In this document: one piece after another, positions 15,285 through 37,703 of the stretch
How positions within the stretch are numbered: the stretch's first letter is position 1
How the letters are laid out: the number at the start of each line of letters is the position of its first letter
Source: a virus
Lineage: Duplodnaviria; Caudoviricetes
Reading direction: 5' to 3' (one strand)
DNA length: 64,000 nt
Virus record (IMG/VR): IMGVR_UViG_3300002026_000019
Coordinates: 5,684-69,683 of that record
The notes under the pieces: model-generated
Told to the model about the DNA's origin: nothing
The model's database searches: none
The model's input: the letters and a program-made list of their open reading frames with translations, nothing else
Program-made: the position numbers and the translations under genes

Positions 15285-18200
15285 TTAATCAACGTGCGTC
15301 ATCATTGCCTTCAGGTTAAGTTCCTTGACTTCGGCTTTCAGTTCCTTGAGGTTTGAAACCTTAATGCCAGAATCCATTAGTTCTTTCACCTTGTCGATGA
15401 GTGCCTGTTTCTTTTGCGGCAAGAAGCAAAGGTCACTACCCGGAGCCTGAGTGAATTTCTTCACGCCGACCATGCCCGGAATGTTTGTGGTCAAACCGCT
15501 TCGTGCAACAAACGCAGGGTTCGTTGCAAGATCAACCACCAACATCAGTTTGCCACTAAGCAACACAGGGTACACTTTCAACTCTGGACGGCGTTTGTTC
15601 TTAACCACCGTTGGAGTGTGTGACATTTTGAAGAACCTTGGCAGGTCGGCAACTGGTGCAAGCTCAATGTTAAACTTGCGACCCTTACCAGTTGAGAAGC
15701 TTTCTGCCAATGCACTCAGGTGCCGAACTGACTTACCATCCAGCGTAAACTTTTCTTCGAGCCAGTCAAGTGCAGCGTTGAAACTCTTGACGTTTGCAAT
15801 CGGCAGCTTTGCGAAGTGTCCGAAGTGCCGGAAGCCGTGTTTCTTGAGAGCCTTCCCACCAGTATCGTCTTCTTCAACTGCTTCAAGCGCAAGAAACTCG
15901 TTGAACACCACCGGATACAGTTCGACAATCACCCCGTCGTCCTGCTCAGGCTTCGTCGGTACAGGCGCAGTCTTTGGTCTGACCAAACCTTGAGTACGCT
16001 TTTGCGAGGCAGCAGCTTTCTGCTTCGCAATCTCGATTGCTTTCTCAGCTTTGATTCGTGCGCCTTCAGTACGTTTCTTGTCGGCAACACTAATCTTCGG
16101 TGCAATCTTGTTGAGCCTGTTCTTGTTACGCTCGGTGACCTTGAGTGCGAGGTACACTTTCGACGCTGACAGGTCACGTACTTCACCACCTTGCGCAAGC
16201 TTGATGTAGACCTTTGAAACTTCATTGTCTTCATTGCCGCCAGCAGCGTTGTCGTCGTCGCTTGTCTTACCCTTCTTGGTCGTTGTCTTAACGATCGTCC
16301 CAAGACCAAACTCGCACCGCACAAACTGACCGTTCAATGCTTTGCGGTCTTTCTTGTACGACTGGGCCAACTCACTCGATTCATCTTCGAGTGCTTCGGT
16401 CAGCGGGATCAAACCATCGTCATCCTTGTCGATCACCTTCATGTTTTCAACCCAAGGGGTGAAGGGGATGGTCTTGGCAGACTCAGGCATTGCCGTCGGT
16501 TCAATCGGGATCATTGTCGTGCGCTTCGTCTTACGCATTTCGCGGAACTCAGCGCCCGTTTCACCAAGCATGTACCGATACTGTCCGATGTAGCTGTTCG
16601 GGTGGATTTCTTTCGAGTGCCCAACACCACCAACTTGACACAACTCATCCAAGTTTGAGTACTTCTTGAAGTTGTCCAGCGACATCTTGATGATGGTCAA
16701 GTCCTTCGTCTTGAGACCCTTGTAGTACTTCGGATTGTGCAGTTCATCGAACGCAGTCTTCTTCAGCATCTTGGAAATCAGACGACCCATCTTCGCAACT
16801 TCAAGTGTTCCATCGCACAGAATCCAGTCAAGGAAAATAATCTGGCGAATGTACTCGCCGCCAACGTCAGGGCGGAAAATACGTGAAGCTGTTTGGTCCA
16901 ACTCACCCGGTGCCCACGGTGCTTCAACGCGAATGAAGCGCGAAGCCATTTGCAGGTTGTGGCCTTCCGAGATACCCATTTCGTTTGCAATCAGGATTTG
17001 AACCTTGGGGTCTTTCTTAAACTTGTTCAGGTTGTCATCCTTGTTGTCGACTTCACCGTGGAAGCGTACTGCAAGCTTCTTCAGGTCAGGCGGCAACCCG
17101 CGATAGATTGCGTCAACAGAGCGCGTGTAACGACAGGTGATAAACACCTTGCCGCGTACTTGCTCTTGCCACTTTTCAGTGTCGAGGTCAGGAGATTCGT
17201 CTGACTTCTCTTCACCGGTTCCGGCAGCAATTGTCGACTTGAAGATGTACGACTTACCGTTGAAGTCACACATTTCAGCAGCGCGGTATACTTTACCCTT
17301 TTGCCACGGTTGTTCTGCGAAGTGGAACTGCAAGCGTTTGATAACGGCTGAAACCTTCGGAGACACATACGACTCACGATCAACTTCTTCACCGAAGATT
17401 TCCGTAGCAACATCATGCAGGTCGACGTCACCGAAAGGATCAGTCAGCAAGCGTTCAAGACGTTGCAAGTACGGCTGCAAAGCTGCTTCCAACTCGTCTG
17501 AGTTATCGGAGTCATCGTCGTCATCTTCGTCTTTGACTTCAGGTGCTTTCTTACCGGCTTCATCATCGTCGCCGTTGAAGTCATTGTCGTCTTCATCTTC
17601 AGGACCACCAGCCATCAACTCGCGGAGCTTCTTGTCGGCCTTGGCTTCGTCCATCGTCTTCTTCAAGACAGCTTCGTAGAACATGCGAAGCTTATGACCA
17701 AGATCGTCATCAGGTCCGGTTTCAAACTGCACTGGCACAAACGTTTCGATAGGGGCTGGAAGCATGAATGCCCATTCTTTACGCTTGTATGAAATGACTG
17801 TGCAGAACTTCGACAACTGGTCACGCACCAGCTTTGCAGTATCTTCCTTGTAGTCCGGGTTGTCTGAGAAGCTACCGTCAGGCTTCAGGATACGTTCCTT
17901 ATGCTTGGCATCAAACTCGTCGGTCGTGCGGAAAATCTGACCGTTGTATATCGCGGCCTGACCAACAACGTCAGACAGCACGTTTTGAATCAGAGTGCCT
18001 GTGGCGATGCGACCATACTTGACACTTGACAACTGGTTGATCGTCTTGACAGCGCGGTGAATTGCACTCGTCGTGTTCTTGATACGATGCGACTCGTCGA
18101 TCAGGACGTAGTCAGGTTCAAACTTCTTCAAGAACTCAACGCTGTTTGATGTAATCTCAACTGCGTTGCCGATAACCAACTGTGTGCGGCCCAAATTCGA

Positions 18201-37541: not shown

Positions 37542-37703
37542 TTACGACTGCCGTGCTTGTTTCCGGGGGCAATCACTTTTGTCACAGTAGCGAATCGCTA
37601 CAGCACAATTGCAGTTGTTTGCAACTCTCTTTTCAACGATTGGTTTTGGAATCATTGGAGGGCTGTCTGACTTACTGACTGTTCGAGGTACCTTAATTTT
37701 CAT
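37542..37703 (-). CDS. 53-aa ORF coupled to the endonuclease gene
   Basis: MKIKVPRTVSKS...CNC...CDKSDCPRK; ATGA overlap. Confidence 0.45.
   Translation of the reverse strand: MKIKVPRTVSKSDSPPMIPKPIVEKRVANNCNCAVAIRYCDKSDCPRKQARQS

Follow-up and report, generated by a model that had tools for sequence, protein, structure and literature searches.

Why should a set of otherwise unrelated phage proteins begin with nearly the same nine residues? This question is raised by a 64,000-nucleotide (nt) stretch of viral DNA, referred to here as the window (bases 5684-69683 of a 69.7-kb IMG/VR viral contig; all coordinates are window positions). A sequence-only reading of the window had proposed that the shared N-terminal peptide, here called the tag, addresses a modular set of proteins to the phage head. 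We found that the tag is far more frequent than expected by chance, that related phages carry it on non-homologous proteins, and that one tagged protein family is a virion component in a cultured relative. To judge from these data, the tag has about an even chance of being a head-loading signal comparable to the capsid-targeting sequence (CTS) of phage T4, used as a portable address in one branch of the PaBG/Lu11/Yoloswag group of jumbo phages.

The source phage is an uncultured jumbo phage and a member of this group, which is formed by the Erwinia phages Yoloswag and Alexandra, the Dickeya JA phages and the Pseudomonas phages PaBG and Lu11 (PMC7412058). The contig is 26% complete according to CheckV, implying a genome of ~260-290 kb. 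Among the products of the window, whose genes lie almost exclusively on the minus strand, are a tail sheath, a DNA polymerase and a SNF2 helicase of 1912 amino acids (aa). The cultured phages nearest by DNA polymerase (~44% identity) are Yoloswag, the JA phages and Alexandra. Of the complete genomes found, the closest is that of an uncultured 286-kb phage (G001, loci L077-L091), whose core proteins are 55-69% identical to those of the window and are encoded in the same order. Comparison of 8 kb of the tagged gene island with cultured phages by megablast gave no matches.

The tag in the window

The strict tag follows the consensus M-K-x-phi-phi-S-phi-S-(A/G), where phi is a hydrophobic residue; Lys or Asn occurs at the end of some copies, and the two serines lie at approximately positions 6 and 8. 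The minus strand of the window holds 11 strict copies and 5-6 more that are loose or shortened. The sequence-only reading had counted about 20 tagged proteins; the set is real, with a size nearer to these numbers. Each start codon that it listed is a minus-strand ATG with a ribosome-binding site and the peptide named, with the qualification that the start at 33270 (MKTIISVSA) opens merely a 33-aa open reading frame (ORF) and that the frame from 25277 meets an in-frame TGA after 21 codons. The element phi-S-phi-S beginning within residues 1-8 was present in 14 of the 87 contig genes, where 0.46 were expected from its internal rate (Poisson P ~1e-16). When residues 2-30 of the N-termini were shuffled in 2000 rounds, the mean was 0.45 and the maximum 4 such genes, so the motif is clearly more frequent than in shuffled N-termini.

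The protein bodies behind the tag had been described as mostly unrelated and mostly very basic, and both descriptions were borne out. After masking of the first 10 residues, BLASTP related only three pairs (36870/33995, 33272/32393 and 25392/24217), and every strict-tag protein of at least 57 aa has an isoelectric point (pI) of 9.3-11.2. The window phage thus carries a short N-terminal peptide common to otherwise unrelated proteins, as is characteristic of a CTS. The genes concerned are listed below, with the peptide at their start; ART stands for ADP-ribosyltransferase.

36276..36638 (-): strict, MKMLISLSA; 120 aa, pI 9.9, no family match
33995..36271 (-): strict but shortened, MLLSISA; 758 aa, C-terminal PARP-like ART domain (residues ~590-715)
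33272..33784 (-): strict, MKVLISLSG; 170 aa, Lys/Ala/Pro-rich basic tail
33169..33270 (-): strict, tag-only stub, MKTIISVSA; ORF of 33 aa
31956..32375 (-): strict, MKTLISISA; 139 aa
31488..31925 (-): strict, MKTVVSLSA; 145 aa
29718..30473 (-): strict, MKTVVSLSA; 251 aa, gene preceded by a terminator-like hairpin at 30505-30522
29266..29439 (-): strict, MPRTIISLSN; 57 aa, tag displaced by one residue
28201..28797 (-): strict, MKTFISLSK; 198 aa, pI 11.2
26981..28141 (-): strict, MRINISMSA; 386 aa
26240..26584 (-): strict, MKKLISLSG; 114 aa, AGT for both Ser
36641..36847 (-): loose, MKTVISIEK; 68 aa
32393..32737 (-): loose, MKIVLKSHSG; 114 aa, N-terminal paralogue of 33272-33784
28794..29066 (-): loose and shortened, MKISISSPN; 90 aa
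26581..26880 (-): loose, MEISINAAN; 99 aa, sigma-70 consensus promoter (26924-26953) just upstream
24960..25277 (-): loose, MKNVVLSSVA; 105-codon frame interrupted by an in-frame TGA at 25212-25214
23581..24204 (-): loose, MKIALSNSF; 207 aa
24217..24951 (-): degenerate N-terminus; 244 aa

Several of the loose forms are genuine by comparison with G001, where the same forms head genes: MKISISAAN begins an unrelated KMPT-N protein, MAISRSNG the orthologue of 23581-24204, and MAKISFSAA, itself a tag, the orthologue of 24217-24951. The start at 26183 (MASTFLSADG), which had been proposed as a looser copy, was dropped; it is the conserved N-terminus of a protein body and no tag. Outside the island, the tag core is matched by the N-termini of the sliding clamp at 10506 and of an HNH gene at 38740, both of which look like chance. 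The sliding-clamp homologue (9385-10506, minus strand) begins MFKIKAFSFSAD; because the Yoloswag orthologue lacks the match, this resemblance is probably fortuitous and due to the first strand of the clamp fold.

Most tagged proteins matched no family in Pfam or PHROGs. The ART domain of the 758-aa protein was recognized by phrog_18612 (1.8e-11) and by PF00644 with an E-value of 8.6e-5, below the cut-off, and the protein gave tblastn matches to phage proteins annotated as ARTs; a PDB sequence search with it returned nothing significant. An untagged 206-aa paralogue adjoins its gene. The island holds two PARP-like ART genes, one of them tagged. The remaining cargo is basic, often Lys/Ala-rich and without a family. 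Among 5.8 billion proteins, no homologue of the 386-aa protein was found and a single partial relative of the 170-aa protein, the only one found for it (P0002), which begins MEKVMISLSG. The 386-aa protein also had no relative in IMG/VR and no BLASTP similarity to the KMPT-N/SprT protein of G001.

Two of the listed frames are short or interrupted. The stub at 33169-33270 appears to be what is left of a tagged gene that was displaced, and the frame 24960-25277 could be a pseudogene, a case of read-through or an assembly error. The stub lies 47 nt ahead of, and in a different frame from, an untagged phrog_1987 gene (32747-33121), inside which an 11/12 match to the sigma-70 promoter is located at 32929-32958.

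Conservation in relatives and the virion link

The tag is retained on non-homologous proteins in relatives whose DNA polymerases are 44-63% identical. Yoloswag has 8-10 tagged genes, which encode, among others, a Nudix protein (PF00293) and proteins of 717 and 545 aa; PaBG homologues of the tagged Nudix hydrolase align with it from residue 13 onward only. G001 has ~12 tagged genes, including a run directly downstream of the portal gene. This run holds a SprT-like/KMPT-N peptidase and a second KMPT-N protein, in which the Pfam domain begins at residue 13-14, right behind the tag. A DNA pattern for the tag matched 7 times in Yoloswag, 4 times in G001, and 5 and 3 times in two further relatives (G003 and G005, respectively), and its reversed control did not match at all. 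Another relative, G002, has two tagged ORFs in locus L034. The tagged genes of the relatives are scattered and have no constant neighbour. A separate, strict DNA pattern gave no matches in IMG/VR, but it is too narrow and misses even the window's own copies. The papers searched, among them the PaBG paper (PMC7412058), a comparative jumbo-phage study (PMC7824862) and a 2026 review, contained no description of the tag.

In the PaBG-like and Lu11-like loci around the module, a position-specific scoring matrix and several patterns revealed no N-terminal tags save in PaBG gp84 and gp202. The topoisomerase IB gp84 (L020; PaBG 56209-57897) starts MHTSLSA and adjoins the virion protein gp83; apart from the helicase gp202, it is the sole PaBG protein with an N-terminal S-L-S-A element.

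The strongest link to the virion is provided by the giant helicase. The helicase, its neighbour and the conserved genes around the islands are as follows.

15285..21023 (-): giant SNF2 helicase, 1912 aa, with tag-like VLSLSAG at residues 17-23
21020..21430 (-): 136-aa gene directly upstream of the helicase; residues 9-17 read LVSVSSVSS
22679..23452 (-): conserved gene at the helicase-side boundary of the island (phrog_23026; Yoloswag gp176, PaBG gp198)
30531..31409 (-): untagged conserved gene splitting the island in two (phrog_17573; Yoloswag gp177, PaBG gp197)
38798..39931 (-): conserved gene bounding the island, with orthologues annotated as 'head-tail connector' (Yoloswag gp178) and 'head-to-tail joining protein' (PaBG gp195)

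The LSLSA that the sequence-only reading had pointed out near the helicase N-terminus, i.e., VLSLSAG, falls into the alignment column in which relatives have their N-terminal tag. In Alexandra-like and Yoloswag-like phages, the N-terminus of the helicase is the tag itself (MMNQMISVSA, MLISTSK, MIISMSK). When the N-terminal regions were aligned, 12 of the 14 sequences had phi-phi-S-phi-S-A in one and the same column; L046 lacks the element, and in L052 it is degenerate. The motif begins at residue 3 or 6 in the Alexandra-like and Yoloswag-like phages, at residue 17 in the window, at residue 35 in G005 and at residue ~50 in the PaBG-like phages, where it takes the forms YVSLAA, FMSLSA and MVSLSN. 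Behind the element, the alignment has a conserved segment. With the motif able to lie as far as 17-50 residues into the helicase, a role in recognition or as a cut site is more plausible than one that depends on a free N-terminus. In the proteome of purified PaBG virions, gp202, the orthologue of the window's helicase, is band 1 (221 kDa; PMC7412058, Table 1). Because relatives tag this giant helicase, a known virion protein, a label for head loading is the most likely meaning of the tag. In the G001 orthologue of the neighbouring 136-aa protein, VASLSAES lies roughly as far from the N-terminus as LVSVSSVSS does in the window.

The genomic setting is consistent with this link. The tagged genes occupy two variable islands, at 23.6-30.5 kb and 31.5-37.5 kb, between genes (22679, 30531 and 38798) that are conserved in Yoloswag, PaBG and G001. 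In PaBG, the corresponding block includes the virion proteins gp191 and gp202 together with the head-to-tail joining protein gp195. The gaps of G001 that correspond to the islands measure 2.0-2.6 kb only, which indicates that the window phage has enlarged them. The proposal of virion cargo was partly supported, in that the helicase family is a virion protein in PaBG, the tagged genes lie between virion-module genes, and the types of cargo (ART, SprT, Nudix, helicase and basic proteins) resemble known injected proteins.

A proposed head-loading signal and its alternatives

If the tag is a head-loading signal, it would act as an extended, strand-like peptide, M-(K/E)-x-phi-phi-S-phi-S-(A/G/small), by which the protein docks inside the prohead, onto the scaffold or core or onto the propeptide region of the capsid protein. 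Unrelated cargo docked in this way would be enclosed together with the DNA: in this phage very basic ORFans and a PARP-like ART, and in the relatives the giant SNF2 helicase along with a Nudix enzyme and a SprT peptidase. Trimming of the tag at or beside S-x-S(-A) by the head maturation protease would probably follow, and the cargo would probably leave the head with the DNA at infection. Docking, cleavage and ejection are steps that we infer. A more far-reaching version is possible, if somewhat doubtful. Here, the tag would be a complete, portable head-loading code that mimics the phi-L-S-x-S of the capsid propeptide and is clipped by the protease. N-termini alone would then list each phage's entire injected set, and the window would encode an expanded array of fast-evolving basic ORFans and an ART that act in the first moments of infection.

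If head loading is correct, the proteins that these jumbo phages bring into the host could be predicted by searching sequences alone. At least 16 proteins encoded here, mostly without assigned function or relatives, would be prime candidates for the earliest host take-over or for anti-defence. In the way that the T4 CTS is already used, the short tag peptide could also serve to package foreign proteins in large phage heads, and CTS-like addressing would have arisen in a lineage whose head protease matches no Pfam protease family (neither S77 nor S78).

In T4, the internal proteins IPI-III and Alt reach the prohead core by means of the CTS, an N-terminal peptide of 10-20 residues (Mullaney and Black 1996, summarised in PMC5694885). 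The peptide is removed by the prohead protease gp21 and can load foreign proteins (PMC5694885). In both systems, variable gene arrays encode unrelated, mostly basic proteins and an ART that have an N-terminal peptide in common; the tag of the jumbo phages is, in addition, similar to a motif in the propeptide of their capsid protein. The T4 peptide ends in L/I-x-E, whereas the tag reads phi-phi-S-phi-S-A without Glu, and no Peptidase_S77 match was found in the relatives. Furthermore, at least 16 genes are tagged here in a quarter of a genome, and the tagged enzymes include a 1900-aa helicase, Nudix and SprT. In everything that sequence can reveal, the tag appears to work like the T4 CTS, but it does not belong to the CTS family.

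Other packaged proteins offer more distant parallels. The phiKZ and SPN3US myoviruses are also jumbo phages that load dozens of proteins, including helicase-like ones and enzymes, many of which are processed by one protease; however, their ejection and inner-body propeptides exceed 100 residues, share no short tag, are cut after Glu and belong to another phage lineage (PMC5694885, PMC10052503). The polyvalent proteins of phages and conjugative elements, for which entry into the host together with the DNA has been predicted, have a similar repertoire of ART, SNF2 helicase, SprT-like peptidase and KMPT-N domains (PMC5512222). There, the domains are fused in one polypeptide, whereas here they are mostly on separate proteins, each tagged. 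Most tagged proteins of the window are small (57-386 aa) and have no recognisable domain, in place of giant fusions. In phage P1, Piya et al. are said to have described in 2017 the Dar antirestriction system, in which the giant helicase/methylase DarB is packaged in the head and its loading depends on Hdf and DarA. Compared by description only, DarB is likewise a SNF2-type helicase of ~2000 residues in the virion, encoded beside accessory head proteins; we know of no shared N-terminal tag in P1. The cargo-loading peptides of encapsulins, short and terminal, direct unrelated cargo into a shell of the HK97 fold. They are an analogy only: their consensus is different, they are usually C-terminal, and the shell is a bacterial compartment rather than a virion.

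Whether the tag is cleaved was approached through the head proteins of the group. In PaBG, ~20% of the mass of the capsid protein is lost, and processing affects several virion proteins (PMC7412058). In an alignment of 10 capsid proteins of the group, phi-L-S-x-S-T-G-E is strongly conserved at residues 31-38, and a second, variable S-x-S-A-like site lies near residue 70 (QSTSA in G001, QSLSA in L093, TSVSA in Yoloswag and APSA in PaBG). A cut at the latter would take off ~72 of 368 residues, or 20%, which fits the mass loss in PaBG. The correspondence between the tag and these propeptide sites is a loose one. The group encodes a head maturation protease, phrog_18299, that belongs to no Pfam family; the Peptidase_S77/S78 models PF03420 and PF04586 gave no matches in G001, Yoloswag and PaBG, with the controls for PF03420 also negative, and a PDB sequence search with the G001 protease returned nothing significant. 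A complex predicted between the G001 capsid protein and residues 1-40 of a tagged G001 protein (score 0.01, mark 0.32) speaks neither for nor against binding.

Several observations weigh against the head-loading reading. In one third of the tags, residue 9 is K, N, Q, S or F rather than Ala or Gly, and a strict cut after Ala therefore cannot apply to all of them. The capsid site near residue 70 is poorly conserved and is missing or changed in G003 and G005. The sequence-only reading had suggested a search for the same site in the capsid, portal and scaffold precursors; beyond the loose S-x-S-A-like site of the capsid propeptide, a regular-expression scan of the protease, scaffold-like, gp81-like and portal proteins of G001, Yoloswag and PaBG revealed no tag-like site that was shared and aligned. 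For these three reasons, we treat cleavage of the tag as an inference. The only virion proteome, that of PaBG (14 bands), comes from a phage almost without N-terminal tags. A perfect sigma-70 promoter (TTGACA-18-TATAAT with a TG extension; 26924-26953, minus strand) lies in the 100-nt gap before the genes starting at 26880 (loose) and 26584 (strict), where by our estimate roughly 0.01 such sites would be expected by chance in the 39 kb searched. It suggests early transcription of both genes by the host polymerase, for which purely late head cargo would have no need. This promoter is not decisive, since the internal-protein genes of T4 are also expressed before replication. Finally, part of the similarity among the window tags is inheritance and not selection. 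The codon of the first Ser is AGY in 8 of 9 tags and that of the second is TCN in 8 of 9 (AGY makes up 34% of Ser codons contig-wide), and the sole DNA repeats in the island are start regions of ~32 nt that include the ribosome-binding site; the window tags thus share ancestry at the DNA level.

This shared ancestry would suit a tag that is a by-product of gene birth, i.e., a portable start cassette (ribosome-binding site, ATG and first codons) that is copied or serves as a recombination anchor and whose peptide has little function. Three tag-only or broken copies and the ORFan nature of the cargo point the same way, and Repoila et al. reportedly thought in 1994 that the T-even internal-protein locus shuffles by a similar route. 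We nevertheless regard this explanation as improbable. In G001 and Yoloswag, both Ser positions use both codon classes and residue 2 is mostly Glu instead of Lys, whereas phi-phi-S-phi-S is kept, which argues that selection acts on the peptide. In addition, the tag is found on old, conserved families (the giant helicase, Nudix and SprT) and forms a conserved alignment column, and cassette shuffling is compatible with an address function, as in T4. It had been argued from the switching Ser codons that the conservation is at the protein level: the class switches are correct and the peptide-level signal holds across the relatives, but inside the window the AGY/TCN pattern reveals common descent. 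An unlikely, though less improbable, alternative is that the tag has no connection with the virion and serves for docking or control, for example as a strand that binds a phage or host factor (such as a chaperone, an unfoldase or protease that recognizes it as a degron, or the giant helicase) and imposes common control of stability, timing or location on a set of accessory proteins. The internal position of the helicase motif (residues 17-50) is unsuited to a free N-terminal signal, and the switch between Lys and Glu at residue 2 misfits the basic N-terminal ClpX motifs reportedly described by Flynn in 2003. The only family with data, the helicase, is a virion protein, and the tagged genes cluster with portal and virion genes. 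Conversely, the alternation of phi-S-phi-S suits a strand that adds onto a partner, the sigma-70 promoter ahead of one strict and one loose gene suggests early expression, and Nudix, SprT, topoisomerase IB and ART enzymes act in the cell rather than in the head.

The two serines, the best-conserved residues of the tag, could also be the substrate of a modifying enzyme (phosphorylation, glycosylation or ADP-ribosylation) that recognizes the peptide in the manner of a leader peptide of ribosomally synthesized and post-translationally modified peptides. The two PARP-like ART genes in the island would supply a candidate, but one of them is itself tagged, no enzyme was found to co-occur with the tag, and the scattered tagged genes of the relatives have no neighbour in common; we consider such a role very improbable. 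A secretion or membrane signal (Sec, Tat or lipoprotein) has next to no chance of being correct. Although the tag is N-terminal and has small residues at -3 and -1 (S-x-S or S-x-A), this explanation is contradicted by the sequence: there is no hydrophobic core, only 3 non-contiguous hydrophobic residues in 9 followed by polar or charged sequence, and none of the tags, all of which were inspected, has a lipobox Cys or twin Arg.

Neighbouring genes and further observations

Two genes of DUF7487/HNH-type endonucleases, probably homing endonucleases, flank the virion-module block at 37700-38740 (minus strand) and 45529-47136 (plus strand); one of them is located exactly at the edge of the tagged island. 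Beside an SbcD-like gene, 43215-44081 (minus strand) encodes a 288-aa, Lys/Ala/Pro-rich, histone-H1-like protein at the position that is taken in PaBG by gp191, a basic virion protein present in several gel bands. The two proteins share no BLAST similarity, probably because of their low complexity.

Just past the stop of gene 29718-30473, a 21-aa ORF at 29673-29714 starts ATGAAAACNGTT, resembling the tags (MKTVADTDMSVSAT); a perfect 15-bp hairpin (29673-29706) underlies this ORF. In G001, an untagged gene (L082:13089-13583) for the anti-CBASS (cyclic-oligonucleotide-based antiphage signalling system) phosphodiesterase Acb1 (PF23474, E 2.7e-20) is located among the tagged genes immediately downstream of the portal gene.

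The ART family of the 758-aa protein, phrog_18612, also occurs in the T4-like Aeromonas phage Aeh1, as part of the 1211-aa protein Aeh1p141 (L102:394-513). Residues 16-22 of this protein, YQRFLAE, resemble the T4 CTS (MKTYQEFIAE in IPIII). Aeh1p141 may be a packaged ART of a T4-like phage, which would hint that the same kind of enzyme is loaded in each lineage through that lineage's own tag.

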